From assembly GCA_024613925.1 (NCBI GenBank), contig GCA_024613925.1_4713.1: DNA of 64,000 nt. One strand, 5' to 3'. Source of the stretch: a phage. The notes beneath the pieces were generated by a model, which was given only the letters and a program-made list of their open reading frames with translations, ran no database searches and had not been told where the DNA came from. A program made the translations under genes and the position numbers. Of this stretch, positions 3,720-64,000 are shown one piece after another. The stretch's first letter is position 1. The number at the start of each line of letters is the position of its first letter.

Positions 3720-4250
3720 TTAAAAGCCCTTAAAACCCGGTGCCATAGGTTGCCCAAACACCGCATTCAAAGTACATATGATGTCCTGGATGCCATTGTC
3801 CCAATGGAGCCAAGTACGCACCATCTCTTCGTCTGACAACGTGATATAACTCATAAGTTTACCGCTGCTTTCCAGACGTTGGTGCGAACTTAACGACTGA
3901 CGATCCGACCAGTTATCAATCAATTGACCCGCAATCTGAACGTTCGTGTCTCGTCTACCCGTGTGAATGAACCGTAGTGTATCACGGATAAACTCCAGAC
4001 TGGTGAAGTTCAGATTTGGGTTATGGCTGTTCATTTCCACCCAATCGGTGATAGGGTACATCAAACGATAAAGGGTAGAAAGAACCTGACGTTCATATTT
4101 CCAGTCATCGAGAGGAGTACCGTCGACCAGACGCTGATACAAACTAACAACGTCGCGATCGTAGTTCTCCTGGCGTTTTACACCGTTAACCGGAAATCCA
4201 AAGAACCCGGTACCGTATAACGTTAAAGGGACGTCACGAAGTGCATTCAT
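3720..4250 (-). CDS. Hypothetical protein
   Basis: 176-aa ORF; 4-bp overlap (ATGA-type coupling) with upstream gene. Confidence 0.5.
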   Translation of the reverse strand: MNALRDVPLTLYGTGFFGFPVNGVKRQENYDRDVVSLYQRLVDGTPLDDWKYERQVLSTLYRLMYPITDWVEMNSHNPNLNFTSLEFIRDTLRFIHTGRRDTNVQIAGQLIDNWSDRQSLSSHQRLESSGKLMSYITLSDEEMVRTWLHWDNGIQDIICTLNAVFGQPMAPGFKGF

Positions 4251-5149
4251 ACAGCTGCCTCTTCTTTTCGTTTAATATCATAACGAAGTTTCTTCAGTCG
4301 CTCTTCGTGATATTCGATCTGCTGCTGGATTTTTGGATCGTTGCCTGCATTCTGTTGCTTTTGCTTCAGTGACAAAATCCAATACTCCAACGCTTGGGCT
4401 TCTTCTTTGGCTGCTTGTAACGACGCTTCTTCACGTTCGCTGCGCCAGATGCGATAACGGTAAATAAGCGTGTTGGTCATTTGAGTGTCGGACCATGAAC
4501 CCATACGCATCGGGTCAGTATTACCTGCGTTGTACAATCCATTACCAACACCGTCTTCATCAGAAACCACAACATCCGGGATTTTATCCAACCCAGCAAG
4601 GATCTGTTGTTTCTGTCCACACAGCACCTCGGTGGCGATGGCGAAACCGTACATGTTGGCGGTCAGGTAAGCAATCTCGTTTTTGGTGAAGAACTCACCA
4701 AGTGCTTTATCACCACCTGGCATGCTTTCGCAGATGACCGTCGCACGAAGCAGCGTACGAGCGTAGCTAACGTAGAAGCCCAGGGACTCAACAAGACGTA
4801 CCAGAGCGGCTTCTTTGAAACTTAGGCCGTCAGCAGCAACATCGATTTCCAGGTTTTTGTTAACACGTTTAACAATTTCTGGAATCAGGTCAACAGCATT
4901 ACGTAGCGCTAAGTGAACGTTTTCTACCCAGCTTCCAGAGCGAACGCGGGTTAAACGCTGGTGAAGATCCTTATCGGCAAGTTTCCATAAGGCGCTTTCA
5001 CCCTTTTGGAGAAGCGAAGCGGATGTCTCGTAGTAAGGAATCGCGGTGTTGTTGATTTCGTCACGGATTGATTCAAGTGCGTCAGCAACACCGGTGCGTT
5101 TAAAAAGCGGCTTCAAACCGCGAATGAATTCTTTAAAATCGATTGCCAT
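4247..5149 (-). CDS. Hypothetical protein, Lys/Glu-rich coiled-coil-like C-terminus
   Basis: 300-aa ORF in minus-strand operon. Confidence 0.55.
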   Translation of the reverse strand: MAIDFKEFIRGLKPLFKRTGVADALESIRDEINNTAIPYYETSASLLQKGESALWKLADKDLHQRLTRVRSGSWVENVHLALRNAVDLIPEIVKRVNKNLEIDVAADGLSFKEAALVRLVESLGFYVSYARTLLRATVICESMPGGDKALGEFFTKNEIAYLTANMYGFAIATEVLCGQKQQILAGLDKIPDVVVSDEDGVGNGLYNAGNTDPMRMGSWSDTQMTNTLIYRYRIWRSEREEASLQAAKEEAQALEYWILSLKQKQQNAGNDPKIQQQIEYHEERLKKLRYDIKRKEEAAV

Positions 5150-5188
5150 GAGTGAGCACCTATGCTATTTCGAAACAGGTTGCGTGTA

Positions 5189-6295
5189 TTAACGAATCTG
5201 TGGGACGTTTCCGGTACGGAGCGCCTGGAGGATCGTCAGAAGATCGGAACCCGAGGTTGACGAACTGTTGGATTTTTCCAGTTGCTTGAAGCTTACGGTG
5301 GTCCCTTGATCCAAGCTGTGGAAATAGAAGGTCACCATCTCTTCAGCTTCGTCGATGATGATCAACTGCATTGCGAGGGCTTCAGCCATGACTTTCTGAC
5401 GTGTGGTATAGTCAGATAAACGACGTCCGATCTTACGCTCGATGGCTTCCTGGTTAGCCTTAGAGATGATATAGGTGGAGGCGATGGCTCCAGAAGAAGG
5501 GATCTTTGTGCTCGCTGCAGCTTTTGCGGCATTGATGCGCGCAGCATTAACAGCCTTACGGATACCCTCTTTATCCATGCGTGAGATTCGTTTGTGTTCA
5601 CGAACCAGATCGCTAAGCAGGATCATATCGCTCCAGAAAGACAGCTCACCGGCCATCATGCGATGCCAACGTGCTCGCCAGGTGTTCTGTGGACCGCCGA
5701 TCGCTAAAATCGACGCAAGCACTTCCGCTGGTGAACTTGCGATACGCATGCTGATATTCAGCGGCATTTTCATCGTTGCCTGACCATCGGTCAGCGTCAC
5801 GGTTAAGAACTTCCCGGTGACCGCATTCGCATCTTTGTTCAGCAATTCGATCGCCGCGTCGCTGGCTCCAACATCGAGGCTATTTTTTTGTTTCCCCTGC
5901 AGGTTGAATCCTTTGCCGTCAAGGAAAACAAGGCTTTTGCTATCCGCACTTTCCAGCGCTAATTTAATAGCCTTATCCGTCAGGTTAGCGTTACGGTTTG
6001 GATTCACGCGACCCAGCGTTTTATCGACACTGATATTACCCACCTGCATGATGGTGTTCAACGCCAGTAAATAGAACCCGGTATACATGTTTTCAGCGGT
6101 GCGCATGCAGTTGCCTAACGCATTGCGTGCGTCGCTATAATACAACTCACGTTCAAAGATCAGCGGTGCGATAACGCGTGAAGGTTGTGAGAGTTCAACC
6201 AGCGAACCTGGCTGGATAAGTTTATTAACTTCGTAGACTTTAGCGATACCGGACGCAACAACGTTAACAGCGTCGGCAATTTCTGATGCTACCAT
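5189..6295 (-). CDS. Hypothetical structural protein (capsid-related candidate, unverified)
   Basis: 368-aa ORF with AAGGA ribosome-binding site; no diagnostic motif recognised. Confidence 0.5.
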   Translation of the reverse strand: MVASEIADAVNVVASGIAKVYEVNKLIQPGSLVELSQPSRVIAPLIFERELYYSDARNALGNCMRTAENMYTGFYLLALNTIMQVGNISVDKTLGRVNPNRNANLTDKAIKLALESADSKSLVFLDGKGFNLQGKQKNSLDVGASDAAIELLNKDANAVTGKFLTVTLTDGQATMKMPLNISMRIASSPAEVLASILAIGGPQNTWRARWHRMMAGELSFWSDMILLSDLVREHKRISRMDKEGIRKAVNAARINAAKAAASTKIPSSGAIASTYIISKANQEAIERKIGRRLSDYTTRQKVMAEALAMQLIIIDEAEEMVTFYFHSLDQGTTVSFKQLEKSNSSSTSGSDLLTILQALRTGNVPQIR

Positions 6296-56985: not shown

Positions 56986-57584
56986 TACTTAGGTTCCAGT
57001 GTTGGTCCAAACAACCAGAATGTCAGGCGCTGATAGACCTGCTCAACGACTGCGGCTTCTGTTTGCTCTTCCAGTGCTTTCCCTTTCTTATGTTGTATTT
57101 CTGGCGGGATGTCTCCGCTGTAAACATACTCTGTTGAGAAGTCCCACGCCAACCGTTTACCGAAAGTGGGTAAGAACACCTCTTCGAATCGGAACGCTTT
57201 CGAATTCCAATGAAGTAGCTGATCGGATTCAACATGTAAAGCTTTATTACGTTTGCTTGGCACGTTTCCGAAGTACTGAACGATAGCTGATTTCATAACC
57301 CGATCTGCGAAGTCTTTGGCTTCGGCCTCATCGAGGGGAGGCAGACGATGCGACAGATTCAGCTTGCGTTGTTCAACATCGATCTTACGCATCGCTTTAA
57401 TCAAATCACCAGGAACGATTTTACCTTTATGTCCTTCCTGTCGATGTACGAAACACCCCTGGAATAACACGCAAAGCTCTTGAGGCGCGCTGCTTTCCAT
57501 TCGTCCGTAAGCAACGATCACCGATCGACGACGATCGATAACTTCGCGGATAAACCGCGGCTCAGTAATACTCACCACTGTCAT
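56985..57584 (-). CDS. Hypothetical protein
   Basis: 199-aa ORF with GAGGG ribosome-binding site. Confidence 0.5.
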   Translation of the reverse strand: MTVVSITEPRFIREVIDRRRSVIVAYGRMESSAPQELCVLFQGCFVHRQEGHKGKIVPGDLIKAMRKIDVEQRKLNLSHRLPPLDEAEAKDFADRVMKSAIVQYFGNVPSKRNKALHVESDQLLHWNSKAFRFEEVFLPTFGKRLAWDFSTEYVYSGDIPPEIQHKKGKALEEQTEAAVVEQVYQRLTFWLFGPTLEPK

Positions 57585-57629
57585 TTAAAGCCCTCTTTAT
57601 CTTTTTTCCATTTCTCTTTACATAACCAC

Positions 57630-58301
57630 TTAAGACGTTGCCATCTTATCTTCCAGAGACTTCTTCGGTAAACCATGGATAACTCCTTCCGGGGTTAAGA
57701 ACACGCAGTCTGGATTCTGCGTTCGTGAACGGTCGTCTGGACTGTTCAACGAAAACAACAACGCAGAAATACCTTTTGTCCGGTTTAACGTCGCTACGAT
57801 CACGTCAAGCTGCCGTAGCGCATCCGATACGGTTCGATGCGGAACGATTCGTGACTGTTTGAAGCTGGCTAACCGCCAAGTCTCGAACAAACAACGCAGT
57901 TTAAACACGTCGGACGGAATAGCTGTAGATCCCTGTTCGATAACCTCAACCCGATCCGCTTCAGGATAACCTACAGCAACCGCACTAAAGTGTCTTACCC
58001 CATTATGAAAATCATCGATAGACGCTTCAGCGTATTTACATACCGTACCAGAAACGACCATCACTTTTGCTAAACCGCGATAATTGATCGTTAACGGAAT
58101 ACGAAATACGCGTAAAGCATGTTCCGGATTTAATGAGACGTCATTCACTTTCGCAGATACCAGCGCACCTCGTTCATATCGAGCTTTGAACGGCAGTCCA
58201 TTATAAACGGGATTGATCACAACGCCCCCTGGGGAGGCGTTAGCGTTAAGATGAATGTTAAGCCAATCGGATACTTCCTGTCTGCTGGTTACGATTAACA
58301 T
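57630..58301 (-). CDS. Hypothetical protein
   Basis: Start moved to ATG at 58301 (MLIVTSRQ) with GGAGGA ribosome-binding site. Confidence 0.5.
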   Translation of the reverse strand: MLIVTSRQEVSDWLNIHLNANASPGGVVINPVYNGLPFKARYERGALVSAKVNDVSLNPEHALRVFRIPLTINYRGLAKVMVVSGTVCKYAEASIDDFHNGVRHFSAVAVGYPEADRVEVIEQGSTAIPSDVFKLRCLFETWRLASFKQSRIVPHRTVSDALRQLDVIVATLNRTKGISALLFSLNSPDDRSRTQNPDCVFLTPEGVIHGLPKKSLEDKMATS

Positions 58302-58326
58302 AAAACGGTCCTCCATTTCTTTTCCT

Positions 58327-58977
58327 TCATTCATGGCGCATATCTTCCAAATCATCCTTTTGTTTTGTAAATTCTGATTGCTTGCGATAAACCGTCCATG
58401 AGTCGTATATACCGTAAAAGTTCAAATGACGTGCATTTAAGTTCACAGTAAATTCTTCCACAGAGGCAAAATCAGAACGAAGCATCGAATGGAAGGTGTC
58501 GTCTCCGGTACAGCCTCCGTATCCTTCACCCTGATAGACCAAAAGCTGGTGAGGTTGGATACGTGCGGTAACCAATGCCGCTTGTGGTTTGTCGTAAGGC
58601 GGCCACGACAGTAAAATAACGTCGTACTGTGAAAGATCGATGTTTGTATAGTCGGCTTGCTGGATATCATCGATAAACGGATGGGGATGTACTGTAACAT
58701 CGTACGCGGTAATATCCTCCACGCCGAGTTTGCGTAACACGTATGTCAGGTAACCTGTCCCACAACCCAAGTCAGCGACACGTCGTCCGTAACAGATGTT
58801 CGCCAACTGGAGCGCGGTATCCATGGTTAACAACGACCATCCGACATGCTGAGTATATTCTTCACGCACAATCCATTGTTGATGGTGCGTCATCGGTTCT
58901 AAGATAGCAGCAAGCTGCTGGTACGGCAACGGCATTTTGGTTTCGCCTTGCGTGAGTAATGCGATAACATCGTTCAT
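58327..58977 (-). CDS. SAM-dependent methyltransferase with PPY-type motif (amino-methyltransferase candidate)
   Basis: Motif I VADLGCGTGYLT; LLSWPPY about 50 aa downstream; start moved to ATG at 58977 (MNDVIALL) with AAGGAA ribosome-binding site. Confidence 0.6.
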   Translation of the reverse strand: MNDVIALLTQGETKMPLPYQQLAAILEPMTHHQQWIVREEYTQHVGWSLLTMDTALQLANICYGRRVADLGCGTGYLTYVLRKLGVEDITAYDVTVHPHPFIDDIQQADYTNIDLSQYDVILLSWPPYDKPQAALVTARIQPHQLLVYQGEGYGGCTGDDTFHSMLRSDFASVEEFTVNLNARHLNFYGIYDSWTVYRKQSEFTKQKDDLEDMRHE

Positions 58978-59118
58978 TCTGTTTCCTTTTATCGGCATAA
59001 GCCCTCCCGGCATGGGAGGGTACAATTATTCATTTATGTGGGTAAAGGTGTGGATCGGCGGCCGTTGAGGCGATAACGCAATAGAACGGCCGTTCATTAA
59101 TAACTACGGTTTTGATGT

Positions 59119-59625
59119 TCATGCTAAAATTCCTTCATTACCTAACAGTCGATTACGATGACGTCGGTACATTTGACAAAGTGTTGTGATTTGATAATGT
59201 TTGTTGTAACGTACCTCGATACGTTTTTGCACCTCTTTCCATGGAAGTTTATCGTATTGCCGATAACGATGGATTTCATTTAACATACGAAGACGAGTAG
59301 GATCGGTGTTCTTTATCGTCGTGAGCTTCACGCGTTGATATCCACGCTGTAGTCCCGATTCGGAATACGTGACGTCAAACTCATCCTGAATGATGGTGAT
59401 GATCTCCCGCCACCGACGGTTCTCGCCGTCACGTAAATGGACAACCCGCGATAAGATATCGTTCCGATTACGATGACTCAGTTTGATGTTAAGCATTGAA
59501 GCAATCGCGCTAATTGCTCTCTGACTCCGTCCTAACGCTTCACCGATTTCTTTCGATGTCATGACGCCCGCGTTTCGGCGTATGAATGCGATTTCGGTTG
59601 TTGTGTATTCTTTACCTGCTGCCAT
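59119..59625 (-). CDS. Myb/SANT-like helix-turn-helix protein, array paralog 1
   Basis: Repeat YTTTEIAFIRRNAGVMTSKEIGEALGRSQRAISAI plus C-terminal W/Y-rich domain shared with neighbours. Confidence 0.5.
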   Translation of the reverse strand: MAAGKEYTTTEIAFIRRNAGVMTSKEIGEALGRSQRAISAIASMLNIKLSHRNRNDILSRVVHLRDGENRRWREIITIIQDEFDVTYSESGLQRGYQRVKLTTIKNTDPTRLRMLNEIHRYRQYDKLPWKEVQKRIEVRYNKHYQITTLCQMYRRHRNRLLGNEGILA

Positions 59626-60089
59626 TTCTTACCACGTGTGTTATAATAGTAACGCTGACAAAGATGTGTGTGACGATACTCCCGTTTGAACTCGACGCTG
59701 ATAATGCGAGCAACTTCTCTCCAGTTAACCCCTTCACGTCGAAGTGCTGTAATACGGTCTGAAATTCTGCACCATTCATCCGGGTCGTATCGTCGTAGCT
59801 TGAGTCGTCGTATTACGGAGGCGACACTCGCTCTCGATCGGCCAAGATGATTTGACAGCTGTTTAACCGAGTATCTGTGGATATTGTCACGAATATAGGA
59901 AATCTCGTTGTCCGTATATGCCTCATTGGTTCTCGACGAAGGGAACAGCATATACAGCTTATTCTTAATCGCGCTTTCTGTGCGTTGAAATACAGCAGCC
60001 AGCTCACTAACCGGTGGTCTGGGTATCCGGTCCGCGTAATCCTCGAGGCGTGAGAGTTCCTCATCTGTCCAGCGATGGTACTTGCGCAT
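59559..60089 (-). CDS. Myb/SANT-like helix-turn-helix protein, array paralog 2
   Basis: Start moved to ATG at 60089 (MRKYHRWTDEELSRLEDY) with AGGAG 6 nt upstream; two repeats. Confidence 0.5.
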   Translation of the reverse strand: MRKYHRWTDEELSRLEDYADRIPRPPVSELAAVFQRTESAIKNKLYMLFPSSRTNEAYTDNEISYIRDNIHRYSVKQLSNHLGRSRASVASVIRRLKLRRYDPDEWCRISDRITALRREGVNWREVARIISVEFKREYRHTHLCQRYYYNTRGKKWQQVKNTQQPKSHSYAETRAS

Positions 60090-60564
60090 GGGCAACTCCT
60101 TTGTTTTTCGTGTAGTAACACCAACGTTGATACAACGCATGTTTATTCGTTGTAATCCCAAATTTAACAACAACGTCGTAGGTAATAACATCCCAATTTT
60201 GGGTGACGTTAAGTCGTTCCGCGATAAACGCGATAATCGCTTCCCGTTCTTGCTTGGTTAGCGCACGACGAATTCCGTTAAGCCGTATAAACTGACGAAC
60301 CGAGTCATACGAACGGTTTAAATCGTACGCAATCTCCCGCAGCGATTTTTGTCTGATTACCGACTTGATGTATGTGCGTTCTTCTTCCGTATACGGCCGA
60401 TGCTTTTGACGTTGACGTATTCCCAAACGCCCCAGACGCGCGTCGACGCTGGCGCGTGTTCGCCCTGTCCGTTGCGCGATTTCATCAATCGTCATCGATG
60501 TGTTCAAATACAGATGCGTAACATCTTTCAGCTCGTCGTCACGCCACGGTCGAGATCGTCCCAT
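60061..60564 (-). CDS. Myb/SANT-like helix-turn-helix protein, array paralog 3
   Basis: RPWRDDELKDVTHLYLNTSMTIDEIAQRTGRTRASV and YTEEERTYIKSVIRQKSLREIAYDLNRSYDSVRQFI. Confidence 0.55.
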   Translation of the reverse strand: MGRSRPWRDDELKDVTHLYLNTSMTIDEIAQRTGRTRASVDARLGRLGIRQRQKHRPYTEEERTYIKSVIRQKSLREIAYDLNRSYDSVRQFIRLNGIRRALTKQEREAIIAFIAERLNVTQNWDVITYDVVVKFGITTNKHALYQRWCYYTKNKGVAHAQVPSLDR

Positions 60565-61042
60565 CTTGTATCCCTCTTTTCTTTCTATGATGCCACCAAC
60601 GCTGATAGACAGCTTGCTTCGTACGTGTTATACCGAAATGCGCATTAACCCGTTCAGCAATGTGGTGCCAATCCTGCGTTTCTTCCAACAATGTATCAAC
60701 GAAGGCTATGAAGATCTTAGTATCAGCCTCGCTTAACCGCTTGAAACCATGACGATGTGCTATCGTTCTGATACTGTTTGGATCCCTGTTTAAATCGCGT
60801 GCGAGTTGTTTGTAACTTTTGTGTTTGCAGTGTGCTCTGATATATTCCAACTCATCGACGCTGAAACGTTTATGTGGTTTACGACGTTCAACATTTAAGT
60901 ATACCAACCTCGATTTAATTGCACCGTACGTTGTTTCCATGATTTCTGCGATTTCACGGATTTTTAATTTCGGGTGACGATAGTACAATTCCAGCAACTG
61001 TTCATCATCCTTACGATTCCATCGTCGTACTGGAGGTTTCAC
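60539..61042 (-). CDS. Myb/SANT-like helix-turn-helix protein, array paralog 4
   Basis: RRWNRKDDEQLLELYYRHPKLKIREIAEIMETTYGAIKSR and FSVDELEYIRAHCKHKSYKQLARDLNRDPNSIRTI. Confidence 0.55.
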   Translation of the reverse strand: MKPPVRRWNRKDDEQLLELYYRHPKLKIREIAEIMETTYGAIKSRLVYLNVERRKPHKRFSVDELEYIRAHCKHKSYKQLARDLNRDPNSIRTIAHRHGFKRLSEADTKIFIAFVDTLLEETQDWHHIAERVNAHFGITRTKQAVYQRWWHHRKKRGIQDGTISTVA

Positions 61043-61055
61043 AACGAGATTTCTC

Positions 61056-61523
61056 CTATTCTACGCGTTTTAATGCTTGAGTGTAGTAGAGGCTATGAAC
61101 ACCGCTTAACGTGTAATGGGTGTTAAATTCGTTATTGATGATATTCCGTATTCTCTCCCAGGTGTTATTCTCTTTTCTAAGGGTGTGTATTCGATAATAA
61201 ATCATCTCTCGACGTTGCGCTTTGCATGCAACAATGCCATAACGGTAGCAGAGTTTAGCGATTGCGTCCACGCTACGATTGAACATCGCTGCAGCTTCTT
61301 TTACGCTATGCGTCTTAAGATAATCAGCTAACATCACACGTTCTTCGAAACAGCAATAGCGGTGACGCGACATGAGTTTCCAGCGCTTGCGATTGCGGTT
61401 AATTCGACCTTGAACAGAGCCTTCTGTTCGGTCAAGCCGTGCCGCAATCTCTTGCATCGGGATACCGTTTCGGTACAGGGTAATCAATATCGCGTCTTCT
61501 TCGGGTGTCCAGTCCTTGACCAT
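61056..61523 (-). CDS. Myb/SANT-like helix-turn-helix protein, array paralog 5
   Basis: KDWTPEEDAILITLYRNGIPMQEIAARLDRTEGSVQGR and second repeat; C-terminal ..W..I..F.....Y..Q.Y block. Confidence 0.55.
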   Translation of the reverse strand: MVKDWTPEEDAILITLYRNGIPMQEIAARLDRTEGSVQGRINRNRKRWKLMSRHRYCCFEERVMLADYLKTHSVKEAAAMFNRSVDAIAKLCYRYGIVACKAQRREMIYYRIHTLRKENNTWERIRNIINNEFNTHYTLSGVHSLYYTQALKRVE

Positions 61524-61535
61524 AGCGCCACCCCA

Positions 61536-64000
<2,465 letters not shown>

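Follow-up and report, generated by a model that had tools for sequence, protein, structure and literature searches.

A Goslar-like jumbo phage encodes a class I methyltransferase that is probably not directed at DNA

Introduction

In class I methyltransferases, the acidic residue of motif II binds the ribose hydroxyls of SAM. In the N6-adenine and N4-cytosine methylases, motif IV reads (D/N/S)-P-P-(Y/F/W); the residue at its first position is the hydrogen-bond acceptor for the target amine. An Asn or Asp also hydrogen bonds with the target amino group in the NPPY group of enzymes (PrmC/HemK, RsmD, METTL5/Ta1320 and Mtq2). To our knowledge, the phage-encoded orphan methyltransferases that have been characterised are mostly DNA methylases, which is a point in favour of reading the gene described here in the same way.

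Among defence systems, MADS includes an N6-adenine DNA methylase, Mad2, and HHpred-derived alignments underlie the MADS profiles (bioRxiv 10.1101/2023.03.30.534895). The DNA of Escherichia phage vB_EcoM_Goslar is cut by (unspecified) restriction enzymes, and the phage encodes no tRNAs (PMC6563267). Chimallivirus DNA is shielded from restriction by the phage nucleus (PMC12908238). Goslar gp111 (YP_009820796) is already annotated as 'class I SAM-dependent methyltransferase', and no mention of this protein or of a WPPY methyltransferase motif was found in the literature.

The orthologue of gp111 described here lies in a 64,000-nucleotide stretch of phage DNA, referred to as the window. From its DLGCGTG and LLSWPPY motifs it had been proposed as a possible DNA amino-methyltransferase for anti-restriction (the original prediction). 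What was known of it is the generic Goslar annotation; what is new is a family signature with an unusual invariant Trp, Glu and Cys.

Results and Discussion

The gene and its start codon

The window shares 95.9% nucleotide identity with Goslar over positions 57000-60500, and the methyltransferase is 93% identical to gp111 at the amino acid level. The gene and the element at its 5' end are as follows.

58327..58998, minus strand: methyltransferase coding sequence, orthologue of Goslar gp111, 223 aa, with its stop codon at 58327-58329
58327-58977, minus strand: shorter reading of the same open reading frame from an ATG start, 216 aa, as taken in the original prediction
59002..59020, minus strand: GC-rich hairpin CCCUCCC-AUGCC-GGGAGGG with a perfect 7-bp stem, directly upstream of ATG 58998

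The two in-frame candidate starts, ATG 58998 (223 aa) and ATG 58977 (216 aa), are preceded by GGGAGGG and AAGGA, respectively. The longer product has the length annotated for gp111, which is also that of most close homologues. The 3' arm of the hairpin is a putative Shine-Dalgarno-like sequence, 3 nt before ATG 58998. RNA folding of a 71-nt stretch gives -15.5 kcal/mol with a z of only -1.9, and the hairpin could either keep the ribosome-binding site covered or lie where the upstream transcript ends.

The dN/dS ratio of the gene is 0.15 in comparison with Goslar and 0.09 with a second relative, showing purifying selection. The reading frame is a genuine, conserved gene of a Goslar-like jumbo phage.

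Distribution and domain architecture of the family

The protein matches PHROG 19090 ('unknown function') with an E value of 5.9e-17, residues 37-198 aligning with profile positions 34-190 of 191. An exhaustive profile search recovered 1,301 clusters (50% identity) at E<=1e-30 and 8,051 clusters at E<=1e-3; merely 19 relatives were returned by a word-indexed search. Members are present in 33 of 50,697 annotated phage genome records, and 24 of these 33 exceed 200 kb. The large carriers are phages of Aeromonas, Klebsiella, Salmonella, Xanthomonas, Stenotrophomonas and Pseudomonas, together with Goslar and two records named Serratia phage (host Klebsiella pneumoniae). The remaining annotated carriers are the haloarchaeal viruses HGTV-1, PhiCh1 and phiH and one Streptococcus phage. 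The confirmed loci in IMG/VR number 97. Taken together, the carriers include phages of Proteobacteria and haloarchaeal viruses, as well as a Streptococcus phage and high-GC contigs.

In GTDB (one genome per species), the pattern [YN]GGCTGDD was found on two short MAG contigs only, and this pattern is too narrow to claim absence from cells. A tblastn search of plasmids with one family member (P0013) gave just four weak hypothetical matches. The family has no Pfam or NCBIfam model of its own. From these searches it appears to be a large, uncharacterised and virus-enriched family, mostly of jumbo phages and haloarchaeal viruses.

On bacterial-looking contigs, methyltransferase-like domains are fused to TPR repeats or are repeated in giant proteins. 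These multidomain relatives (P0070, 1932 aa; P0048, 610 aa; P0094, 576 aa; P0139, P0155 and P0166, 871-1076 aa) have two to four tandem copies of the domain, or a single copy C-terminal to kinesin-light-chain-type TPR repeats. The copies in P0070 and P0094 are without the WPxY and GEG..C motifs. The N-terminal regions of the multidomain relatives match nothing in Pfam or NCBIfam, and searches of the PDB with P0155 and P0070 found nothing except TPR repeats.

Fold, SAM site and conserved residues

An AlphaFold model generated from a 143-sequence alignment (pLDDT 95.9) consists of N-terminal helices and a seven-stranded Rossmann core. The seven strands, a GxGxG after beta1 and an acidic residue ending beta2 place the protein in class I, as had been proposed at the level of a methyltransferase; fold, motif I, D93 and family homology all agree on this. 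Residue conservation was scored in the 143-sequence family alignment (A2). The conserved elements are as follows.

58753..58773, minus strand: motif I, D69-L-G-C-G-T-G75, the glycine-rich SAM-binding loop after beta1
58699..58701, minus strand: D93, the acidic residue of motif II at the end of beta2 (strand E89-93 in the model), Asp in 141/143
58594..58605, minus strand: W125-P126-P127-Y128, directly after beta4 at the motif IV position
58498..58530, minus strand: G150-E-G-Y-G-G-C156-T-G-D-D160, the loop after beta5 at the motif VI position
58402..58404, minus strand: D192, within G-I-(H/Y)-D-x-W, a conserved block that precedes the last strand (motif VIII region), Asp in 137/143

The SAM site looks intact, as its key residues are conserved: the three glycines of motif I (G71 136/143, G73 142/143, G75 141/143), D93, and R38 on the N-terminal helix (134/143). 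All Pfam and PDB sequence matches centre on the motif I region.

The acceptor side has its own signature. The original prediction had placed DLGCGTG and then LLSWPPY on one reading frame, and both are there, at residues 69-75 and 122-128, with 50 residues from G75 to W125. It had also flagged the Trp standing where D, N or S would precede PP, and this Trp is found in all 143 sequences. P126 (140/143) and Y128 (129/143) are conserved as well. P127 is present in just 62/143, its place being taken by Asp (29), Cys (19), Asn (13), Ser and others; the family motif is therefore W-P-x-Y, of which the 'PPY' seen in the Goslar clade is a local form. The most conserved block of the family is G150-D160, which lies between strand E145-150 and helix H160-169 in the model (G150 143/143, E151 142/143, G155 142/143, C156 141/143, T157 130/143); F162 follows in 132/143. 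The residue preceding D192 is His in 108/143 and Tyr in the Goslar clade, and D192 is a probable active-site residue. The signature as a whole has three parts: beta4 is followed by h-h-h-L-x-W-P-x-Y, beta5 is followed by G-E-G-x-G-G-C-T-G-D-D, and the last strand is preceded by G-I-H-D-x-W. When all PDB sequences were searched with a profile of the catalytic half (A3), no relative emerged at thresholds up to E<=10.

The protein is acidic, with a pI of 4.88 and 29 Asp+Glu to 15 Lys+Arg (net charge about -14). Across the family, the median pI is 5.2 and the median net charge -9.

Relationship to characterised methyltransferases

In Pfam and NCBIfam, the window protein has generic class I methyltransferase matches only, all of them sub-threshold and centred on motif I. 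By hhalign, the family profile is closest to the E. coli proteins TehB (E 6e-9), UbiG (8e-9) and PrmC (5e-8, 94.8% probability), far above RsmD (2e-3, 14%) and TrmA (9e-3, 4.3%), and the alignments to E. coli proteins all fall in the SAM-binding half. The best Foldseek matches are small-molecule/natural-product and peptide N- and O-methyltransferases and MtNAS, with flat scores that do not discriminate. From structure and sequence together, the protein is a member of the class I superfamily, with no characterised subfamily assigned.

UbiG and TehB, as small-molecule class I enzymes (Methyltransf_23/25/11), have the best hhalign scores, and Methyltransf_23 is matched weakly by 114 of the 143 members. 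However, the likeness is confined to the SAM-binding half, is below the Pfam gathering scores for the window protein, and leaves the WPxY, GEGxGGCTGDD and GIHD motifs of the family without a counterpart.

The alignment with PrmC/HemK ends at motif IV, where WPPY is in register with NPPY and the Asn is replaced by Trp. Motif IV thus has the local geometry of the amino-methyltransferases without their catalytic side chain. Throughout the NPPY group the hydrogen-bonding residue is Asn/Asp, whereas here it is an invariant Trp; the second Pro is not conserved in the family, and the N-terminal domain of HemK is absent. The original prediction had raised the RsmD/HemK type as an alternative. It was a fair one to raise, but the protein does not fit the MTS/HemK/RsmD/METTL5 type: Pfam MTS (PF05175) scores 19.6 bits against a cut-off of 23 bits, with 40/143 members matching weakly at motif I only, and (N/D)PP(Y/F) is missing.

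Genomic context of the relatives

Open reading frames were called and compared by all-versus-all BLAST for 80 IMG/VR loci plus the window. Beyond close relatives, no neighbouring gene (nuclease, specificity subunit or other) is conserved in 68 dereplicated viral loci. Apart from the loci described below, family members in large phages have anti-defence-like genes or genes of nucleotide metabolism around them, without any pattern; one locus is near an Apyc1-like anti-defence gene.

In the haloarchaeal viruses, the PhiCh1 homologue ORF83 (4899-5474, L008) overlaps the stop of the gene for the N4-cytosine methylase M.PhiCh1-III, to which it appears to be translationally coupled, and a C5 methylase gene is nearby. 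The phiH homologue, like that of PhiCh1, directly follows a DNA N4C methylase gene. The HGTV-1 homologue (3845-4489, L004/L051) lies within an array of 35 tRNA genes and, as annotated, overlaps the last tRNA-Leu; the nearest tRNA is 112 nt away. The contexts in PhiCh1 and HGTV-1 are suggestive yet contradictory.

On three IMG/VR contigs, a tRNA gene is found 9-372 nt downstream of the family member, and on some contigs the distance is just 9-15 nt. Across the 68 loci, the density of tRNA genes is 0.045/kb within 1 kb and about 0.03/kb at 1-10 kb. A linkage to tRNA genes was dropped, as this enrichment is slight and the window and Goslar are without tRNAs. Overall, the clues from genomic context are weak and mixed.

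A stand-alone enzyme with a non-DNA target

The reading favoured here, with about as much doubt as confidence, is a stand-alone class I SAM-dependent methyltransferase with a non-DNA target. The SAM-binding half is canonical, with GxGxG, D93 and R38 on the N-terminal helix, and the conserved acceptor side is new in composition. The predicted acceptor pocket would be lined by aromatic (W125, Y128, F162) and acidic residues (E151, D159, D160, D192) and by C156/T157. With no TRD, specificity subunit or conserved neighbour, the enzyme would work alone. Its substrate would not be DNA, and a molecule common to Bacteria and Archaea is the candidate. The leading guess is a cationic nucleophile, which may be a nitrogen in an amine or guanidino group, carried by a basic protein or a small metabolite, with RNA as the second choice. 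A cationic or basic substrate is preferred because the composition of the pocket, the acidic surface and the fusions to (peptide-binding) TPR repeats in bacteria would fit it. In a nucleus-forming phage, the simplest site of action would be the host cytoplasm, where the enzyme may serve as an accessory host-manipulation or counter-defence factor. Finding the substrate could bring to light a new means by which large viruses alter the machinery of their hosts.

Several observations sit less well with a non-DNA target. PhiCh1 ORF83 overlaps the stop of M.PhiCh1-III. With motif IV in register with NPPY of PrmC, an amino-group target is possible if the hydrogen-bond acceptor has been relocated (for example to E151). 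The acidic pI is circumstantial only, and the fold neighbours, being flat in score, do not discriminate. The Cys, which is nearly invariant, suggests chemistry beyond simple N-methylation.

A more radical reading, and a rather unlikely one, is that this is a virus-specific family of methyltransferases or SAM-group transferases with a new active site built on the invariant Trp, Glu and Cys, which large phages and archaeal viruses would use to modify a universal host component such as the ribosome or a translation factor, a tRNA, or a signalling or defence metabolite. If true, this would represent unrecognised host-takeover or counter-defence chemistry.

An RNA target

The next reading, which we consider unlikely, is that the enzyme methylates RNA (tRNA or rRNA), possibly forming m5U or m5C by covalent catalysis, with C156 attacking C6 of the pyrimidine as in TrmA/RumA. 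C156 (141/143) is on the loop after beta5, in the motif VI region where the catalytic Cys of the m5U enzymes is found, and the protein is similar in size to RsmD and METTL5. The position of the HGTV-1 homologue in a tRNA array and the three contigs with a downstream tRNA gene are also in keeping with an RNA target, but proximity to tRNA genes is only mildly enriched, and neither the window nor Goslar has tRNAs. The Cys itself is out of place: in GGCTG, it comes 5 positions later on the loop than the m5U Cys would, and that register would be occupied by E151. The SCNP motif, the motif VIII Glu and a TRAM or other RNA-binding domain are all lacking, and the protein is acidic. A TrmA/RumA structure (PDB 8z62) is matched with an insignificant margin over other PDB matches, and this alignment stops at beta5. 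The covalent m5U idea was weakened by hhalign to E. coli TrmA (about 4% probability, motif I only) and by the Pfam scan of the 143 members: they match 28 families, and the best 25 of these do not include the TrmA/RumA family (PF05958).

A DNA target

The original prediction corresponds to a gamma-type DNA N6-adenine/N4-cytosine methyltransferase with a degenerate motif IV (WPPY), shielding the phage DNA from restriction. This now seems improbable. The order of motif I and then a PPY-like turn at the end of beta4 is shared with the gamma-class DNA N6-adenine enzymes (HsdM, MADS Mad2, Type II/IIG), and W125 aligns exactly with the Asn of PrmC NPPY in hhalign. The spacing between the two motifs had been taken as a sign of this class; however, about 50 residues is common to all class I methyltransferases, and so is not diagnostic of DNA amino-methyltransferases. 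Neither NPPF/Y nor a D/N/S is found in motif IV: all 143 sequences have Trp at the catalytic position, and only 62 of them have the second Pro. There is no TRD, as the 216 aa comprise the N-terminal helices and Rossmann core and end right after beta7. The PhiCh1 and phiH homologues do directly follow a DNA N4C methylase gene, but no specificity subunit or nuclease is conserved alongside the family in the 68 loci. The acidic surface (net charge about -14) is unfavourable for unaided DNA binding, and chimallivirus DNA is already shielded by the phage nucleus (PMC12908238).

Profile searches point the same way. The top hits are RNA, protein or small-molecule methyltransferases, the first of two outcomes that together were to refute the original prediction. 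The window protein has no significant DNA-methylase match in Pfam or NCBIfam, and of the 28 Pfam families that the 143 members match, the best 25 do not include N6_Mtase, N6_N4_Mtase or MethyltransfD12. The family profile aligns with E. coli HsdM at 0.3% probability (E 0.2). In PADLOC, the window protein has weak matches to MTase_II (23 bits, E 7e-6) and to mad2 (23 bits), and at most 5/143 members match MTase_II. The control DNA methylases HsdM, Dam and M.PhiCh1-III match 42, 21 and 66 PADLOC families, respectively, almost all of them methylase models that this family leaves unmatched.

The mad2 profile is matched by 101/143 members (best E 1e-14), in alignments that run from the N-terminal helix past beta5. 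As the MADS profiles derive from HHpred-based alignments, E. coli controls were run against it. Six E. coli proteins that are not DNA methylases (PrmC 82 bits, UbiG 73, TehB 63, CmoA 53, RsmD 51 and TrmA 46) outscore the window protein at 23 bits, which voids a Mad2 identity. The mad2 model (PDLC04134, PADLOC-DB v2.0.0) is a generic class I methyltransferase detector, and matches to it are no evidence of a DNA methylase or of MADS.

With an invariant Trp, no TRD, no partner gene and no DNA-methylase profile, the DNA amino-methyltransferase reading and the anti-restriction role attached to it are not supported, and the protein is probably not DNA-directed. 'GxGxG ... PPY' is no ground for propagating a DNA adenine/cytosine methylase or anti-restriction label.

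A SAM-consuming or SAM-binding protein that lowers host SAM to counter SAM-dependent restriction or BREX, via an abundant trivial acceptor or another SAM-group transfer, is very improbable. The intact SAM site would fit it, as would the one locus near an Apyc1-like gene and the occurrence of the gene on its own within the variable accessory regions that large phages carry. But the case is purely circumstantial, structural scores are flat, the elaborate conserved acceptor-side motifs (WPxY, GEGxGGCTGDD, GIHD) argue for a specific substrate, and a phage that forms a nucleus hardly needs to disarm defences aimed at DNA.

Surroundings of the gene in the window

The methyltransferase gene sits within a minus-strand block of accessory genes. 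The genes downstream encode hypothetical proteins with no match in Pfam or PHROG, and there are no tRNA genes in the window. Two stretches present in Goslar are absent here. One, of about 861 bp, comprises gp112 and the larger part of gp113 (an acetyltransferase) and is missing at around 59030-59035, immediately upstream of the methyltransferase gene; the other, of about 711 bp (gp120), is missing at around 61859, beside the DNA ligase gene. The region is an indel hotspot between genomes that are otherwise 92-96% identical.

Directly upstream of the methyltransferase gene, on the minus strand at 59119-61856, some six small paralogous genes (155-210 aa) overlap in a tandem array and correspond to Goslar gp114-gp119. 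They carry sigma-70 region 4, Myb or HTH-like domains, and each of them matches PHROG 323, 'D5-like transcriptional regulator' (E 1e-10 to 1e-20). The array is a striking local amplification of genes for DNA-binding proteins.
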